DNA of 64,000 nt from assembly GCF_003334335.1 (NCBI RefSeq), contig NZ_QOWQ01000002.1; one strand, 5' to 3'. This DNA comes from Escherichia coli (GTDB lineage Bacteria > Pseudomonadota > Gammaproteobacteria > Enterobacterales > Enterobacteriaceae). The position numbers were made by a program, and so were the translations under genes. Shown piece after piece: positions 5,469 to 61,770 of the stretch. How positions within the stretch are numbered: position 1 is the first letter of the stretch; every line of letters starts with the position of its first letter. The notes beneath the pieces were generated by a model, which saw nothing but the letters and a program-made list of their open reading frames with translations, had not been told where the DNA came from and did not search any database.

Positions 5469-7127
<1,659 letters not shown>

Positions 7128-7167: not shown

Positions 7168-8290
7168 TGCTGATAAGACGCGCCAGCGTCGCATCAGGCA
7201 ACCGGCTCGGGCGTTAGATGTTGGATGCGGCGTAACCGCCTTATCCAACCTACGGGGTGGAGCACTTCACAGCGGTGTAGGCCTGATAAGACGCGCCAGC
7301 GTCGCATCAGGCAACCGGCTTGGGCGTTAGATGTCGGATGCGGCGTAACCGCCTTATCCGACCTACGGGGTGGAGCACTTCACAGCGGTGTAGGCCTGAT
7401 AAGACGCGCCAGCGTCGCATCAGGCAACCGGCTCGGACGTTGGATGTCGGATGCGGCGTAACCGCCTTATCCAACCTACGGGGTGGAGCACTTCACAGCG
7501 GTGTAGGCCTGATAAGACGCGCCAGCGTCGCATCAGGCAACCGGCTTGGGCGTTAGATGTCGGATGCGGCGTAACCGCCTTATCCGACCTACGGGGTGGA
7601 GCACTTCACAGCGGTGTAGGCCTGATAAGACGCGCCAGCGTCGCATCAGGCAACCGGCTCGGACGTTGGATGTCGGATGCGGCGTAACCGCCTTATCCAA
7701 CCTACGGGGTGGAGCACTTCACAGCGGTGTAGGCCTGATAAGACGCGCCAGCGTCGCATCAGGCAACCGGCTCGGGCGTTGGATGTCGGATGCGGCGTGA
7801 CCGCCTTGTCTGACCTACGGGGTGCCGCACTTCACAGCGGTGTAGGCCTGATAAGACGCGCCAGCGTCGCATCAGGCAACCGGCTCGGGCGTTGGATGTC
7901 GGATGCGGCGTGACCGCCTTGTCTGACCTACGGGGTGCCGCACTTCACAGCGGTGTAGGCCTGATAAGACGCGCCAGCGTCGCATCAGGCAACCGGCTCG
8001 GGCGTTGGATGTCGGATGCGGCGTGACCGCCTTGTCTGACCTACGGGGTGCCGCACTTCACAGCGGTGTAGGCCTGATAAGACGCGCCAGCGTCGCATCA
8101 GGCAACCGGCTCGGGCGTTGGATGTCGGATGCGGCGTGACCGCCTTGTCTGACCTACGGGGTGCCGCACTTCACAGCGGTGTAGGCCTGATAAGACGCGC
8201 CAGCGTCGCATCAGGCAACCGGCTCGGGCGTTGGATGTCGGATGCGGCGTGACCGCCTTGTCTGACCTACGGGGTGCCGCACTTCACGGC
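7168..8290. repeat. tandem array of ~10 REP/BIME units (113-bp period) between convergent mqo and eco
   Basis: REP palindrome gcctgataagacgcgccagcgtcgcatcaggc recurs at 7168 (variant), 7281, 7394, 7507, 7620, 7733, 7846, 7959, 8072 and 8185, interleaved with a second REP-type palindrome (cggatgcggcgtaaccgccttatccg and variants); first units alternate two variants (226-bp super-repeat), last five units near-identical. Confidence 0.9.
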
Positions 8291-36215: not shown

Positions 36216-37309
36216 TAACGTCCCTCAAAATCAATACGCGGATCAACCAGCGTATAGCTGATATCACTGACAATATTCAGCAGCAGGCCAATCAGGGTGA
36301 AAATATACAAGGTACCAAACATTACAGGATAATCGCGCGAGACGGTCGCTTCGTAGCCCAGTAAGCCCAGACCATTGAGTGAAAACATCACCTCAATCAG
36401 CAGCGAGCCGGTAAAAAACATGCTGATAAACGTCGCCGGAAAACCGGCAATCACCAGCAGCATGGCGTTGCGGAACACATGTTTCCAGAGAATATTTTTT
36501 TCACTTACCCCTTTCGCACGCGCGGTCACCACGTATTGCTTGCGCACTTCATCAAGGAATGAGTTTTTTGTCAGCATGGTCAGCGCCGCAAAGCCACCAA
36601 TCACTGTCGCCAGCACCGGCAGCGTGATATGCCACAGATAATCGGTGATTTTCTGATACCACGGCAGCGAATCAAAGTTAGCGGAAACCAGGCCGCGTAG
36701 AGGGAACAGGTCGAAATAGCTGCCGCCCGCGAAGAAGACAATCAGCAGGATGGCAAACAAAAAGGCCGGAATGGCGTAGCCGATGATGATAAATGCGCTA
36801 CTCCAGACGTCAAAGCGGCTCCCATTATAAACAGCTTTGCGAATGCCTAACGGAATCGACACCAGATAGATAATCAGCGTGCTCCACAATCCGAGGGTGA
36901 TGGAAACCGGCAGACTGTCTTTAATCAGCGTCAGCACCGAGGCGCTGCGAAACAGGCTATCGCCAAAATCAAAGCGGATGTAGTCCCAGAGCATTTTGAA
37001 GTAACGTTCGTGGATCGGCTTATCAAAACCGTAGCGATGAGTGATCTCAGCGATCACTTCTGGATCTAATCCGCGTCCGCCACGGTAATTACTGTCGCTG
37101 ATATTGCCGACACCCGTTTGCGCATGGCTGGCACGAACACCTTCACCGCCTGCGCCGGGTAATACTCCGGCATTACCAAACTCAATGGCGGCGATGGCCT
37201 GGTCGACCGGACCGCCAGGCGCAATTTGCACGATGAAAAAGTTGATGGTGATAATCGCCCATAATGTTGGGATCACCAGCAACAGACGGCGAATCAGGTA
37301 AGCGCCCAT
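36215..37309 (-). CDS. yejB: ABC transporter permease YejB
   Basis: 364-aa membrane ORF; 1-nt overlap with yejE. Confidence 0.92.
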
Positions 37310-51769: not shown

Positions 51770-51778
51770 TAAAAGGTG

Positions 51779-51811
51779 TGTTACAGGGCAGAAATTTCCT
51801 GTCCTGTAACA
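51779..51811 (+). terminator. stem-loop immediately after fruA (possible terminator)
   Basis: tgttacagg-...-cctgtaaca inverted repeat 10 nt after fruA stop; weak T-run. Confidence 0.4.
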
Positions 51812-51926
51812 TTTGATGAGCGCAAAGAGAATGACCGGTTTGTGAATGTAATTTTATGAATTTAAATGGTTTTATCTTTCAGTAGAAACTTCAAACGTTC
51901 ATCAAACACTCAGGTTATTTCCTCAA

Positions 51927-51952
51927 GGGCAGATTATTTTCTGCCCTTTTTT
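51927..51952 (+). terminator. rho-independent terminator downstream of fruA
   Basis: gggcag-attatttt-ctgccc followed by TTTTTT. Confidence 0.75.
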
Positions 51953-52191
51953 ATTGTTCTGTTCTGTGCATCCCGTCACAAATTCCTCGCTTTTGTAATT
52001 CAGGCATTTAATCGCATTTTGTGAGCCTGCTCAAATCTGCCCATTTTGCCTCTCTGGCGGTAATTTACTTTACGTAAAACATGCATACTATGAGCACATG
52101 TTTAAATATGAACACATGTTTAAACCGTCTTTGCAGTATCTATATTCTTGTGGATTGACAGGGTTGGTAATTTTTTACCAGAGGACGTGCT

Positions 52192-53133
52192 ATGCGCGAA
52201 AAGGATTATGTCGTAATTATAGGTTCGGCGAATATTGATGTCGCCGGATATTCACATGAATCATTAAATTATGCGGATTCAAATCCAGGTAAAATAAAAT
52301 TTACGCCTGGTGGAGTAGGGCGCAATATTGCACAAAACCTGGCGTTGCTGGGTAACAAAGCCTGGCTACTGAGCGCCGTAGGCAGTGATTTTTATGGTCA
52401 ATCGCTGCTAACGCAAACCAATCAATCTGGCGTTTATGTCGATAAATGCCTGATTGTGCCGGGAGAAAATACGTCGAGTTATTTATCATTACTCGATAAT
52501 ACCGGTGAAATGCTGGTTGCTATAAATGACATGAATATTAGCAACGCTATTACAGCTGAATATCTCGCACAGCACGGTGAATTTATTCAGAGGGCAAAGG
52601 TCATTGTCGCGGACTGTAATATCAGTGAAGAGGCACTGGCATGGATTCTGGATAATGCCGCCAACGTACCCGTATTTGTCGATCCGGTTTCGGCATGGAA
52701 ATGTGTCAAAGTGCGCGACCGTCTAAATCAGATCCACACTCTCAAGCCAAACCGCCTTGAAGCGGAAACCCTGAGTGGGATTGCGCTGTCAGGGCGTGAA
52801 GATGTGGCAAAAGTTGCTGCCTGGTTCCATCAACATGGCCTGAACCGACTGGTATTGAGCATGGGCGGCGACGGCGTTTATTACAGCGATATCAGCGGTG
52901 AAAGTGGCTGGTCTGCGCCGATCAAAACCAATGTTATTAATGTTACCGGAGCGGGCGATGCCATGATGGCGGGACTTGCTTCGTGTTGGGTAGACGGAAT
53001 GCCGTTTGCCGAATCTGTTCGTTTCGCACAGGGATGTTCGTCAATGGCGCTCTCCTGTGAATACACCAATAACCCCGATTTATCGATTGCCAACGTTATA
53101 TCGTTAGTGGAGAACGCAGAATGTCTGAATTAA
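52192..53133 (+). CDS. psuK: pseudouridine kinase
   Basis: 313-aa PfkB-family ORF MREKDYVVIIGSANIDVAG...GAGDAMMAG. Confidence 0.92.
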   Translation: MREKDYVVIIGSANIDVAGYSHESLNYADSNPGKIKFTPGGVGRNIAQNLALLGNKAWLLSAVGSDFYGQSLLTQTNQSGVYVDKCLIVPGENTSSYLSLLDNTGEMLVAINDMNISNAITAEYLAQHGEFIQRAKVIVADCNISEEALAWILDNAANVPVFVDPVSAWKCVKVRDRLNQIHTLKPNRLEAETLSGIALSGREDVAKVAAWFHQHGLNRLVLSMGGDGVYYSDISGESGWSAPIKTNVINVTGAGDAMMAGLASCWVDGMPFAESVRFAQGCSSMALSCEYTNNPDLSIANVISLVENAECLN

Positions 53134-54059
53134 AAATTTCCCCTGAATTATTACAAATTTCCCCGGAAGTGCAGGACGCTTTAAAAAACAAAAAACCGGT
53201 TGTGGCGCTGGAATCGACCATTATTTCTCACGGGATGCCGTTCCCACAAAATGCCCAGACCGCAATTGAAGTTGAAGAAACTATTCGTAAACAGGGCGCT
53301 GTACCTGCCACGATCGCCATTATTGGCGGCGTGATGAAAGTGGGGTTAAGCAAAGAAGAAATTGAATTACTGGGTCGTGAAGGGCATAACGTGACCAAAG
53401 TTAGTCGTCGCGATTTACCTTTTGTTGTTGCCGCCGGAAAAAATGGCGCAACCACTGTGGCTTCAACGATGATTATTGCGGCGCTTGCCGGAATTAAAGT
53501 ATTTGCCACCGGGGGAATTGGTGGTGTGCATCGCGGGGCGGAACATACCTTCGATATTTCTGCCGATTTGCAAGAACTGGCAAATACTAATGTCACCGTT
53601 GTTTGTGCCGGGGCGAAATCTATTCTCGATTTAGGATTAACCACTGAGTATTTAGAAACCTTCGGTGTGCCGTTAATTGGCTATCAGACTAAAGCGCTGC
53701 CTGCGTTTTTCTGCCGCACCAGCCCGTTTGACGTCAGCATTCGTCTCGACAGCGCCAGCGAAATTGCCCGTGCAATGGCGGTGAAATGGCAAAGCGGTCT
53801 GAACGGTGGCCTCGTGGTAGCGAACCCGATCCCGGAACAGTTTGCTATGCCGGAACACACTATCAATGCGGCGATCGATCAGGCGGTAGCTGAAGCTGAA
53901 GCTCAGGGAGTCATTGGTAAAGAAAGTACGCCATTCCTGCTGGCGCGCGTTGCTGAACTGACCGGCGGTGACAGCCTGAAATCCAACATCCAGCTGGTGT
54001 TCAACAACGCCATTCTGGCGAGCGAAATTGCCAAAGAATATCAGCGTCTCGCGGGTTAA
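53121..54059 (+). CDS. psuG: pseudouridine-5'-phosphate glycosidase
   Basis: 312-aa ORF MSELKISPELLQISPEVQDALKNKKPVVALESTIISHGMPFPQN...; overlaps psuK end. Confidence 0.92.
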   Translation: MSELKISPELLQISPEVQDALKNKKPVVALESTIISHGMPFPQNAQTAIEVEETIRKQGAVPATIAIIGGVMKVGLSKEEIELLGREGHNVTKVSRRDLPFVVAAGKNGATTVASTMIIAALAGIKVFATGGIGGVHRGAEHTFDISADLQELANTNVTVVCAGAKSILDLGLTTEYLETFGVPLIGYQTKALPAFFCRTSPFDVSIRLDSASEIARAMAVKWQSGLNGGLVVANPIPEQFAMPEHTINAAIDQAVAEAEAQGVIGKESTPFLLARVAELTGGDSLKSNIQLVFNNAILASEIAKEYQRLAG

Positions 54060-54152: not shown

Positions 54153-55402
54153 ATGGATATAATGAGAAGTGTTGTGGGGATGGTGGTGTTACTGGCAATA
54201 GCATTTCTGTTGTCAGTGAATAAAAAGAGCATCAGTTTGCGCACGGTTGGAGCCGCACTGCTGCTGCAAATCGCTATTGGTGGCATCATGCTCTACTTCC
54301 CACCGGGAAAATGGGCAGTAGAACAGGCGGCATTAGGCGTTCATAAAGTGATGTCTTACAGTGATGCCGGTAGCGCCTTCATTTTTGGTTCGCTGGTTGG
54401 GCCGAAAATGGATGTCCTGTTTGACGGTGCGGGTTTTATCTTCGCCTTTCGCGTACTTCCGGCGATTATTTTCGTTACTGCGCTCATCAGTCTGCTGTAC
54501 TACATTGGCGTGATGGGGCTGCTGATTCGCATCCTTGGCAGCATTTTCCAGAAAGCCCTCAACATCAGCAAAATCGAATCTTTTGTTGCGGTTACTACTA
54601 TTTTCCTCGGGCAAAATGAGATCCCGGCGATCGTTAAACCGTTTATCGATCGCATGAATCGCAACGAGTTGTTTACCGCAATTTGTAGCGGGATGGCGTC
54701 CATTGCTGGTTCGATGATGATTGGTTATGCCGGAATGGGCGTACCAATTGACTACCTGTTAGCGGCATCGCTGATGGCGATCCCTGGCGGGATTTTGTTT
54801 GCACGTATTCTTAGCCCGGCAACCGAGCCTTCGCAGGTCACATTTGAAAATCTGTCGTTCAGCGAAACGCCGCCAAAAAGCTTTATCGAAGCGGCGGCGA
54901 GCGGTGCGATGACCGGGCTAAAAATCGCCGCGGTGTGGCGACGGTGGTAATGGCGTTTGTCGCAATTATTGCGCTGATCAACGGCATTATCGGCGGAATT
55001 GGCGGCTGGTTTGGTTTCGCCAATGCCTCTCTGGAAAGTATTTTTGGCTATGTGCTGGCACCGCTGGCGTGGATCATGGGTGTGGACTGGAGTGATGCCA
55101 ATCTTGCGGGTAGCCTGATTGGGCAGAAACTGGCGATTAACGAATTCGTCGCTTACCTGAGTTTCTCCCCATACCTGCAAACGGGCGGCACGCTGGAAGT
55201 GAAAACCATTGCGATTATCTCCTTTGCGCTTTGTGGTTTTGCTAACTTTGGTTCTATCGGTGTTGTCGTTGGCGCATTTTCGGCTATTTCGCCAAAACGC
55301 GCGCCGGAAATCGCCCAGCTTGGTTTACGGGCGCTGGCAGCAGCAACGCTTTCCAACCTGATGAGTGCGACTATTGCCGGGTTCTTTATTGGTCTGGCGT
55401 AA
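54153..55402 (+). pseudogene. psuT: NupC-family nucleoside (pseudouridine) transporter PsuT, apparently frameshifted
   Basis: Two overlapping ORFs 54153..54950 (265 aa) and 54935..55402 (155 aa) together span 1250 nt, one base short of an intact 416-aa gene; the paralog nupX reads gccgcaggtgtggca where psuT reads gccgcggtgtggcg (about 54927-54936). Confidence 0.7.
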
Positions 55403-58698: not shown

Positions 58699-59787
58699 TT
58701 ACACCATTGGCACTAATGAAAGCGCGTTATCGGCAGACAGGGTAGGGTTGTTTAAGCTGCCGCTGGCGCGCGAAATTGCCGCGCAGGCTACCGCAAAACG
58801 GGCGCTGTCGCGGAAACTGTATCCTTCAAGAAAGCTATATACCAGGCCCGCCATAAAACCATCGTCAGCACCAAAACTGTCTACTGTCGTATGCGCTGGC
58901 GCGGTCAGCAAAAATTGTTCTCCATCCTTTTCGCTGCAATAAACTGACTCATCGGGCAAATAAACAAACAGTTGCTGAACACCTTGCTGATGCAATGCAT
59001 TCACTGCGGTATTACGGTCAGCATCGCTGGTGATCGCCTGTCCCCATAAAATTTCCAGCTCCGGTAAAGTGGGTTTCAGGGTGTGAATATGCGCCAGCCA
59101 GTGTTTGATTTTGCCCGCTTTGAATTCTGAAACGGTATCGACAAACACCGGGATTTCATCAGCGAGGGTAAAGACCCATTCCAGCGCCTCGGCTGTCAGG
59201 TTGCAATCAGCCAGTACCACGCCCGCATGACGAAGTAAATCGCGCGACCCGTTCAGTAGTTGCGGTGTCAACTGTTCCAGCAGATGGGTATCGTTAATCG
59301 CCAGCACGGTTTGATCGTCTCGATTGGCAATTGCCAGATACGTCGATGTGCTTTGACCATGCAAACGAACGCAGCCGGAGACATTCACGCCGGCACGGCG
59401 CGTTTCTTCCAGGAGCATTTCGCCATAAAAGTCATCGCCAATCACTGAAAGCAAATGGACGTCACGGCCTAACAGCGCCAGATTGTGGGCGATGTTGCGT
59501 CCCACGCCGCCCGCTGAGCAATGAATTGTACCGGGATGAGAAGCCGATTGCGGGTAACGGATATCCGCCATCCCGCGAATATCCATATTGATTGTCCCCA
59601 CCACTACGCAGTATTCCTGCTCGGTGAGAATGTAACCTTTGCCTTTAATCCGGCCTTTGCGCATTAAATCCATAATATGCGCCGCAACGCGCGAACGGCT
59701 GATTTGCAGCATGTCCGCAATTTCGTTCTGCTGAATCAGCGGGTTACGCCGTAAAATTGCAAGGATCTCCTTTTCCCGGTTATTCAT
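58699..59787 (-). CDS. yeiI: HTH-containing PfkB-family sugar/nucleoside kinase YeiI
   Basis: 362-aa ORF; N-terminal HTH plus ribokinase-like domain (GGVGRNIAHNLALLG), paralogous to psuK. Confidence 0.9.
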   Translation of the reverse strand: MNNREKEILAILRRNPLIQQNEIADMLQISRSRVAAHIMDLMRKGRIKGKGYILTEQEYCVVVGTINMDIRGMADIRYPQSASHPGTIHCSAGGVGRNIAHNLALLGRDVHLLSVIGDDFYGEMLLEETRRAGVNVSGCVRLHGQSTSTYLAIANRDDQTVLAINDTHLLEQLTPQLLNGSRDLLRHAGVVLADCNLTAEALEWVFTLADEIPVFVDTVSEFKAGKIKHWLAHIHTLKPTLPELEILWGQAITSDADRNTAVNALHQQGVQQLFVYLPDESVYCSEKDGEQFLLTAPAHTTVDSFGADDGFMAGLVYSFLEGYSFRDSARFAVACAAISRASGSLNNPTLSADNALSLVPMV

Positions 59788-60720: not shown

Positions 60721-61770
60721 TTATGCGATGACGCTTTGAATCACATAGTTAATCGCACCACCACCAACAATCAGCCAGGCAAACAGTACCAGTGCCATCA
60801 GCAGAGGTTTCGCCCCAGCTTTTTTCAGCGCGCTGACGTGAGTGGTCAGACCCAGCGCCGCCATCGCCATTGCCAGCAGGAAGGTATCCAGCGTTACCAG
60901 CATGTTCACCACGCTCTGCGGTAACAGGTGGAACGAGTTAAAGATGGCAACTACGATGAACAAGATGGCAAACCACGGAATAGTGATTTTGCTTTTCTCG
61001 CCGCTGTTCGCCCCAGACAGCTGTTTAACACGCGCCGCCAGCAGGATGAGGAACGGAGCCAGCATCATCACGCGCAGCATTTTGGAAATAACTGCTGCGT
61101 TTTCCGCATCCGGGCTGATGGCATGACCTGCCGCCACCACCTGCGCCACTTCGTGCACAGTAGAACCAATGTAGATACCGAAAGTTTCCGGACTAAACCA
61201 TTGAGACATCAGCGGATATATCGCCGGGTAGAGGAAAATCGCGACGGTCCCGAAGATAACAACGGTTGCAACAGCCACGGTTACTTTACTGGCTTCCGCT
61301 TTCACTACCGGCTCAGTCGCCAGTACCGCGGCAGCACCACAGATACTGCTACCGGCACCGATCAACCAGCTGGTGTGCTTATCCAGACCAAACACTTTCT
61401 GCCCCAGGAAGCAAGCCAGCAGGAAGGTACTGGACAGCGTCAACACGTCAATGATGATCCCACTGATACCGACATCGGCAATTTGCGAGAACGTCAGACG
61501 GAAGCCATAAAGAATGATACCCAGACGTAATAAATATTGCTTGGCAAACAGCACACCACCGTCACAGCTTTTCCAGATGTGCGGATAGATGGTGTTGCCT
61601 AAAACCATCCCCAACAAGATTGCGAGGGTGAGGGCACTAAACCCGGCACCCGCAACCGCGGGAATGGAACCACCCCACAGGGCGACCCCGGTGATAACTG
61701 CACTCAGGGCTAACCCCGGAATAAAATGCCACAGTGTACGATGTTGTTTCTGTAAGGTGATATTCGTCAT
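60721..61770 (-). CDS. yeiH: UPF0324 inner membrane protein YeiH
   Basis: 349-aa polytopic membrane ORF. Confidence 0.9.

Follow-up and report, generated by a model that had tools for sequence, protein, structure and literature searches.

What is the function of the two closely spaced copies of a short sequence in front of psuK, the pseudouridine kinase gene of Escherichia coli, and which protein would recognize them? The window, by which we mean the whole stretch of 64,000 nucleotides of E. coli DNA that was analysed, is E. coli K-12-like and carries, in this order, fruB-fruK-fruA, psuK, psuG, psuT, yeiL (minus strand), rihB, nupX, yeiI (minus strand) and nfo. The gene names used in an earlier note on this DNA were correct. 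That note had described the 12-mer CACATGTTTAAA as occurring twice in direct orientation, and it is found on the plus strand at exactly the coordinates given there, 52095-52106 and 52113-52124. It had also put the copies about 70-100 bp upstream of psuK, in good agreement with the 68-97 bp that separate them from the psuK ATG at 52192. Even with one mismatch allowed, the 12-mer has only these two occurrences in the 64-kb window, and shuffled controls gave a mean of 0.34 matches, with at least two matches in 5 of 100 shuffles. The 12-mers are embedded in a longer tandem unit (Table 1), the copies of which (52089-52106, TATGAGCACATGTTTAAA, and 52107-52124, TATGAACACATGTTTAAA) lie head to tail and are identical at 17 of 18 positions; by our own estimate, a tandem match of this quality is expected by chance ~10^-3 times per whole window. 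The 12-mer repeat is thus confirmed as real and a chance match is excluded.

Each copy of the unit contains a palindrome. The K-12 versions of the two palindromes are GAGCAcaTGTTT and GAACAcaTGTTT; the palindromic core of the first, GAGCA-CA-TGTTT, covers 52092-52103 and that of the second, GAACA-CA-TGTTT, covers 52110-52121, 18 bp away. We refer to the predicted 16-bp sites around these cores as operators O1 and O2.

Table 1 Features of the psuK upstream region and the candidate regulator gene, in window coordinates
Feature	Position	Strand	Remarks
Second CRP-like site, TGTGC-ATCCCG-TCACA	51965-51980		55 bp upstream of the first CRP-like site; TGT...TC.C.A columns invariant in alignment A1
CRP-like site, TGTGA-GCCTGC-TCAAA	52020-52035		TTGTGA...TCA.ATCT invariant across genera; centre at about -70.5
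Predicted -35, TTTACT	52064-52069	+	ATTTAC-TT invariant in the 12 sequences of A1
Inverted partial copy, AAAACATG, in the -35/-10 spacer	52076-52083	+	AAAACAYGC kept in most Escherichia-type genera
Predicted -10, TACTAT	52086-52091	+	16-bp spacer; 4 of 6 positions invariant in A1
18-bp tandem unit, 2.0 copies	52089-52124	+	TRF period 18, 94% matches, score 65; repeat-family search agrees
Operator O1 (predicted), ATGAGCACATGTTTAA	52090-52105		12.2 bits, second-best match in 64 kb; conserved in A1
Operator O2 (predicted), ATGAACACATGTTTAA	52108-52123		16.7 bits, best match in the window
psuK, pseudouridine kinase without HTH	52192-53133	+	First gene of the psuK-psuG-psuT operon
yeiI, candidate regulator	58699-59787	-	wHTH (1-48; Pfam HTH_24, E = 2.3e-10) and PfkB domain (58-348; E = 3e-68)

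The repeats appear to sit just downstream of the predicted promoter -10, at about -8 to +26, rather than upstream of the promoter. The predicted -35 and -10 elements, which were assigned by consensus, would place the psuK start near 52098, corresponding to 2259390 on the minus strand of MG1655; no experimental mapping of the psuK transcription start was found in the literature searched. Relative to this predicted start the O1 16-mer extends from about -8 to +8 and the O2 16-mer from about +11 to +26, and the location of the sites immediately downstream of the -10 implies repression. In the second E. coli haplotype, described below, the -10 reads TATTAT. The putative CRP site closer to the promoter agrees with the textbook CRP consensus TGTGA-N6-TCACA at 9 of 10 positions and lies at a class I distance. 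Between the two CRP-like sites K-12 has two GCATTT repeats with a 10-bp period (52004-52019). The CRP-like pair with its GCATTT repeats resembles CytR-controlled promoters; other genera do not share the GCATT repeats.

Two published observations touch on this promoter. A long-term stationary-phase study reported an intergenic A-to-C mutation at psuK -126 / fruA +297 in three of four populations (PMC7858067). The position maps to 52066 of the window, where the mutation is T to G on the psuK strand and changes the third base of the predicted -35, from TTTACT to TTGACT, which suggests selection for more pseudouridine catabolism in starving cultures. The authors of that study also list the psuK -126 position among the differences of their parental strains from the reference (PMC7858067); we therefore treat the mutation as suggestive only, and it may be a pre-existing parental polymorphism rather than a product of parallel selection. 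In several clinical isolates, PsuG and PsuK were strongly lower in recA mutants under ciprofloxacin (PMC11039860). A search of the fruA-psuK intergenic region (51770-52191) for a LexA box, CTGT-N8-ACAG, with at most one mismatch returned none, so the recA effect on PsuG and PsuK is probably indirect.

The intergenic region holds further elements. A 7-bp hairpin, TTGGTAA-tttt-TTACCAG (52164-52181), ends at the psuK Shine-Dalgarno sequence and has one pair that varies in a compensatory manner: K-12 has U-A, E. albertii a U·G wobble, and both Citrobacter and the second E. coli haplotype have C-G. The hairpin may act within the 5'-UTR on stability or translation, or may be a palindromic protein site. 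Downstream of fruA there are two terminator-like hairpins, at 51779-51811 and 51925-51948, ~130 bp apart. The 130-bp segment between them has no Rfam match, and in the second E. coli haplotype (locus L025) this stretch is replaced by apparent REP-type repeats. A sigma-54 reading of TGGCAA..TTGCC before the Citrobacter ribosome-binding site was rejected: its spacing is not constant (11 or 12), TTGC is replaced by TTAC in E. coli, and the start would fall inside the ATG.

We aligned psuK orthologue loci from other Escherichia species, E. albertii, Citrobacter, Buttiauxella and a Raoultella MAG (alignment A1, 12 sequences). The conserved block of A1 consists of the CRP-like TTGTGA-N6-TCA.ATCT, ATTTACTTT, TACTAT and then two sites 18 bp apart, which read GAACAyrTGTTTrA and GAACAtgTGcTCTAA. 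The feature conserved across genera is the dyad symmetry of each site, (G/A)AACA-NN-TGTT(T/C), the central dinucleotide of which varies freely, and the two 18-bp units agree with each other at no more than ~10-12 of 18 positions in Citrobacter, E. albertii and the second E. coli haplotype. The direct repeat, which the earlier note had taken as the recognized unit, is therefore better read as a palindrome that is present twice, the near-identity over 18 bp being confined to the K-12-type haplotype. As judged from these alignments, the predicted functional unit is a pair of ~14-bp palindromes with the consensus CAAACA-NN-TGTTTG and centres 18 bp apart.

The pair is found well beyond these relatives. 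Of the 11 lineages sampled, 10 have a site pair with a spacing of 18-19 bp in front of the pseudouridine operon, and paired sites were seen in Escherichia, Citrobacter, Enterobacter, Yersinia, Serratia, Photorhabdus, Pasteurella, Shewanella and Aliivibrio. A Burkholderiaceae MAG has one palindrome, which abuts the ATG. The Yersinia group keeps the order of the elements, with a TTTACT box, an A/T-rich -10, O1 and O2, and O2 abuts the start codon. In four Yersinia-group genera there is, in addition, a single distal site ~250-290 bp upstream of the gene, and in Xenorhabdus this distal site alone scores and the proximal pair looks degenerate. The distal sites lie at ~5751 in locus L013 (Yersinia), ~5746 in L014 (Serratia), 5714 in L016 and ~5726 in L019; each is preceded by a CRP-like site, and a conserved leader, CTTACGATC...CCCAA, lies between the distal site and the proximal pair. 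The distal site may be an auxiliary operator for DNA looping, or may belong to a second promoter. In Yersinia and Serratia the called starts of the first gene, which encodes a protein of 372 aa, fall inside O1 (6001-6030); translation probably begins at the ATG 27 nt further on, giving a protein of 363 aa with the MTSREK N-terminus of its orthologues.

To score the sites we built a cross-species matrix from 17 sites of 8 lineages that are not of the Escherichia type. Its symmetrised counts show CAAAC and GTTTG arms around a variable central pair, and the C and G positions are kept in 34 of 34 cases across all 17 training sites. When this matrix was run over the ~64,000 positions of the window, O2 (52108) ranked first and O1 (52090) second (Table 1), and the best pair at 18/19-bp spacing reached a score of 28.8, compared with 14.8 for the runner-up. 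Other top matches in the window were at 61013, 62107, 58964 and 26655, at least three of them inside long ORFs. With leave-group-out matrices, the rank-1 match of every 9-13-kb locus fell in the upstream region of the operon. The simple consensus GAACANNTGTTC with up to two mismatches gave 33 matches in the window, against ~27 expected by chance on our own estimate; an identical 12-mer at 36473 was treated as chance because it lies inside a coding gene on the opposite strand. The earlier note had proposed a motif check upstream of rihB, nupX and yeiI. The matrix scan, which covered the 64-kb window, found no site there, and no further operators before yeiL or nfo-yeiI.

These results bear on the proposal, made from the spaced direct and inverted repeats, that the region is a transcription factor operator. 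Phylogenetic footprinting strongly supports an operator as such; neither the direct-repeat unit nor the inverted partial copy is supported as the site. The inverted copy, aaaacatg, is present, although the span of 52075-52083 assigned to it was one base too long (Table 1), and it has only the 7-mer AAACATG in common with the reverse complement of the repeat. As a third operator it was rejected, since its full-site score with the cross-species matrix is below 0.

Which protein would bind the sites is suggested by the genes that travel with them. In eight lineages (Yersinia, Serratia, Photorhabdus, Xenorhabdus, Pasteurella, Shewanella, Aliivibrio and the Burkholderiaceae MAG) the first gene of the operon encodes an HTH-PfkB protein, a PsuK with an N-terminal winged helix (HTH-PsuK); psuG comes next, and often also a gene for a nucleoside transporter of the CNT family. 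Escherichia, Citrobacter, Enterobacter and Buttiauxella have separate genes for PsuK, which lacks the HTH, and for a neighbouring YeiI. All 11 lineages examined encode an HTH-PfkB protein, and motif and HTH-PfkB gene occur together at the pseudouridine locus in 11 of 11; the HTH_24-PfkB protein is the sole DNA-binding protein encoded consistently at these loci. In Citrobacter, Buttiauxella and Enterobacter yeiI follows psuT directly and is convergent with it. In E. coli it is located downstream of nfo, apparently in the nfo operon, and does not adjoin psuK; by this comparison of gene orders, yeiL-rihB-nupX is an Escherichia-specific insertion between psuT and yeiI. Inspection of all three frames upstream of psuK in E. 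coli showed no coding remnant of an HTH. Several other features of these loci were recorded. In the window, psuT (54153-55402) lacks 1 bp near 54931 compared with MG1655 and strain PG20180061; the resulting frameshift leaves ORFs of 265 and 155 aa in place of the 416-aa transporter, and psuG carries a C/T difference at 53779. In the Aliivibrio locus (L018), psuG and an adenosine-deaminase gene are separated by a purine riboswitch at 8027-8126 (Rfam RF00167, 72.8 bits).

The YeiI protein is composed of a winged helix and a PfkB domain and matches the NCBIfam PsuK model at ~1e-79; its homologues are widespread. The HTH of YeiI is 66-72% identical to the HTHs of gammaproteobacterial HTH-PsuK proteins and 57% identical to the Burkholderiaceae one, and a segment, ISRSxVAxHIMxL..KG.IKGKGYI, is nearly invariant between YeiI and HTH-PsuK, with ISRSxVAxHIMxL as the putative recognition segment. 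The kinase domains of YeiI and HTH-PsuK share 38-48% identity. E. coli PsuK shares 53-60% identity with the kinase domains of HTH-PsuK proteins from enterobacteria and Pasteurella, and 38% with YeiI. PfkB kinases are marked by an NxxE motif, for Mg/phosphate, and a GxGD motif, which forms the anion hole. The canonical GAGD is present in every PsuK and HTH-PsuK, and the canonical NxxE in all in which it was read. YeiI does not have the canonical motifs of an active PfkB kinase: GADD replaces GAGD in 4 of 4 orthologues examined, and TxxE replaces NxxE in all 3 orthologues in which the motif is readable. YeiI keeps most of the residues that contact pseudouridine in the PsuK structure, namely N14, D16, G41, V42, N45, Y97, N143, V166 and D256, plus S30; the contact residue Met114 of PsuK is Thr in YeiI. 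According to a passage of PMC12506659 that cites the result from elsewhere, a psuK mutant is unable to use pseudouridine, and YeiI would then be no enzymatic substitute for PsuK. In the recent papers that we found, YeiI appears as an uncharacterised sugar kinase. The literature searched yielded nothing on a regulator of the pseudouridine operon or on YeiI as a regulator, and neither a solved structure nor a characterised member of the HTH-PfkB fusion was found.

Taken together, these data make it likely that the repeats are a double operator of a CRP-dependent psuKGT promoter, that YeiI is a repressor released by pseudouridine, and that YeiI and PsuK arose by duplication of an HTH-PsuK gene. 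We assign the sites to YeiI with moderate-to-good confidence. Among the three candidates of the earlier note (YeiL, the HTH domain of YeiI and a nucleoside-responsive repressor), it is the HTH domain of YeiI that is favoured by the co-occurrence of motif and gene and by the conservation of the HTH. In the ancestral state, a single bifunctional HTH-PsuK, encoded by the first gene of the operon, would have autoregulated the operon. The gene would have been duplicated in the lineage of Escherichia, Citrobacter, Enterobacter and Buttiauxella, after which PsuK would have lost the HTH and remained an enzyme, and YeiI would have kept the HTH and the pseudouridine pocket and lost the canonical catalytic motifs, becoming a dedicated sensor-repressor. 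We infer that two YeiI dimers, bound to O1 and O2, would block initiation or promoter escape, that pseudouridine or pseudouridine 5'-phosphate would bind the kinase-like domain and release YeiI, and that CRP would supply catabolite control. Some observations speak against this model: a spacing of 18 bp between the centres places the two dimers on different faces of the helix, and yeiI is neither next to psuK nor, according to the matrix scans, near a site of its own. More broadly, we favour on balance the view that wHTH-PfkB proteins are a class of enzyme-derived transcription factors of Gamma- and Betaproteobacteria, in which an ancestral kinase-autorepressor with paired operators was split into PsuK and the pseudokinase sensor-repressor YeiI.

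The near-identity of the two copies has its own history within E. coli. The fruA-psuK intergenic region of the window is 100% identical to that of O16:H48 strains and MG1655. Of 4213 E. coli genomes that carry a 71-bp core, 3271 (78%) have it at 99% identity or more, whereas the whole 426-bp intergenic region is this similar in just 916 of 4232 genomes (22%). About 22% of complete E. coli genomes have a diverged, albertii-like psuK region. In strain S5, which carries this diverged haplotype, psuK has 80.6% nucleotide identity and the sites are TATGAACATGTGTTTAAA and TCTGAACACATGCTCTAA. From these comparisons, two old palindromes have recently been homogenised into a near-perfect direct repeat, in one haplotype only. 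Strain EA7 (locus L021, 280-530) has a single copy of the 18-bp unit, with an IS5 just upstream of the CRP-like site, and is a natural single-operator variant; besides EA7, no change in the copy number of the unit was found in alignments sampled from the 4213 genomes. Of 5426 complete E. coli genomes, 5423 carry the yeiI gene (loci L024 and L025), which has two deeply diverged alleles, one with at least 95% identity in 3363 genomes and the other with ~81% in 2060, between flanking genes that are otherwise conserved. The haplotype splits of psuK and yeiI do not coincide, as FORC_029 combines a K-12-type psuK with a diverged yeiI.

Among the alternatives, the one that fares best is that the sites are a genuine operator of a different protein, such as YeiL of the CRP/FNR family, a regulator of nucleoside or pyrimidine genes (CytR, DeoR or RutR) or another factor conserved across Gammaproteobacteria; we regard it as unlikely, with a small chance of being correct. 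In its favour, yeiL lies 2.3 kb downstream of the operon in E. coli, the 16-bp TGTTTAAATATGAACA between the site centres agrees at 11 of 16 positions with what we take to be the DeoR operator, TGTTAGAATTCTAACA, and O2 agrees at 11 of 14 positions with what we take to be the RutR box, TTGACCAnnTGGTCAA, both resemblances being partial. YeiL, a neighbouring regulator that the earlier note had named as a candidate, is missing from every non-Escherichia locus that has the sites, there being no copy at those of Citrobacter, Buttiauxella, Enterobacter, Yersinia, Serratia, Pasteurella, Shewanella and Aliivibrio, and the conserved 5-N2-5 palindrome departs from the 5-N4/6-5 layout of CRP/FNR proteins. 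Conservation of the inverted repeat between the sites does not extend beyond Escherichia, no lineage matches the RutR (CC/GG) or DeoR box at its distinguishing positions, and no ChIP or SELEX report was found that places any factor at the psuK sites.

It is quite improbable that YeiI or another factor instead activates a downstream, Escherichia-specific promoter, TTTAAA-16-TATATT (52119-52146). A consensus scan does report this pair, with 9 of 12 matches and overlapping O2, which would cover the -35 if the promoter were real. The pair is not conserved outside Escherichia, however, and in one of the aligned loci (L002) a 12-bp deletion collapses its spacer and leaves the upstream -35 and -10 intact. 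The stationary-phase mutation maps to the upstream -35, and a downstream promoter would have no room in Yersinia, Serratia, Photorhabdus and Pasteurella, where O2 lies directly against the start codon.

It is very improbable that the element acts as RNA, through a leader hairpin of the tandem copies (52100-52125) with an effect on mRNA stability or translation. The predicted 11-bp stem has an energy of -9 kcal/mol (z = -2.9) and the whole leader folds with z = -3.3, but the stem exists only in the homogenised K-12 haplotype and cannot be formed in Citrobacter, E. albertii or the second E. coli haplotype. Conservation is seen in the dyad symmetry of each site, around central dinucleotides that vary freely, and Rfam gave no relevant match in this region of the window or in seven distant loci. 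That the 18-bp unit is a neutral tandem duplication without function, as the 17/18 identity of its copies and the collapse to one copy in EA7 might suggest, is an extremely faint prospect and is effectively refuted by the cross-genus conservation, for the two-site layout long predates the homogenisation, copy number in the sample from the 4213 matches is stable besides EA7, and conservation of the core exceeds that of its flanks.

If the assignment of the sites to YeiI is right, the psuK/YeiI system would be a clear natural example of a bifunctional enzyme-regulator that underwent subfunctionalisation, and YeiI would have a function, one that is specific and cheaply testable. It would also provide the first regulatory model of bacterial pseudouridine catabolism, a pathway engineered for the production of pseudouridine for mRNA therapeutics. 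The analysis defines a DNA motif together with a regulator family in which a winged helix is fused to a ribokinase-fold domain, and the operator/regulator pair could be usable as a pseudouridine-responsive biosensor.

Compared with known systems, the element itself is ordinary, a repressor operator at a CRP-dependent catabolic promoter; the regulator, an enzyme-derived wHTH/ribokinase-fold protein, is not. The layout is like that of the lac promoter, in that a CRP-like site ~70 bp upstream is followed by a TTTAC(T/A)-type -35 and, right after the -10, by a palindromic operator. Unlike lac, which has a main operator and distant auxiliaries, psuK has two adjacent operators 18 bp apart and a regulator of another family, and it is in the Yersinia group that a distal single site ~250-290 bp upstream is added. 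The physiological area is that of the CytR/DeoR control of nucleoside catabolism, and the tandem CRP-like sites 55 bp apart are as in CytR promoters. The psuK palindrome is presumably neither the CytR octamer nor the DeoR 16-mer, however, and it follows the HTH-PfkB gene across taxa.

The closest parallels of the proposed regulator are the ROK repressors NagC and Mlc of E. coli, in which an N-terminal wHTH is likewise fused to a sensor with a sugar-kinase fold that is paralogous to a real kinase, and which repress catabolic or transport operons through palindromic operators that overlap the promoter, often at more than one site. YeiI differs from these in that its sensor fold is PfkB/ribokinase according to Pfam, not ROK/ASKHA, and in the site consensus; moreover, in most lineages the fused protein keeps its catalytic motifs, is the only kinase of the operon and is presumably bifunctional. 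That state, the likely ancestral HTH-PsuK, is like BirA and NadR, in which a single polypeptide combines an HTH with an enzyme of the regulated pathway. BirA and NadR repress biosynthesis or salvage with a product or cofactor as corepressor, whereas psuKGT is catabolic and induction by the substrate would be expected, and in Escherichia, unlike in either of them, the roles of enzyme and regulator appear to be divided between paralogues.
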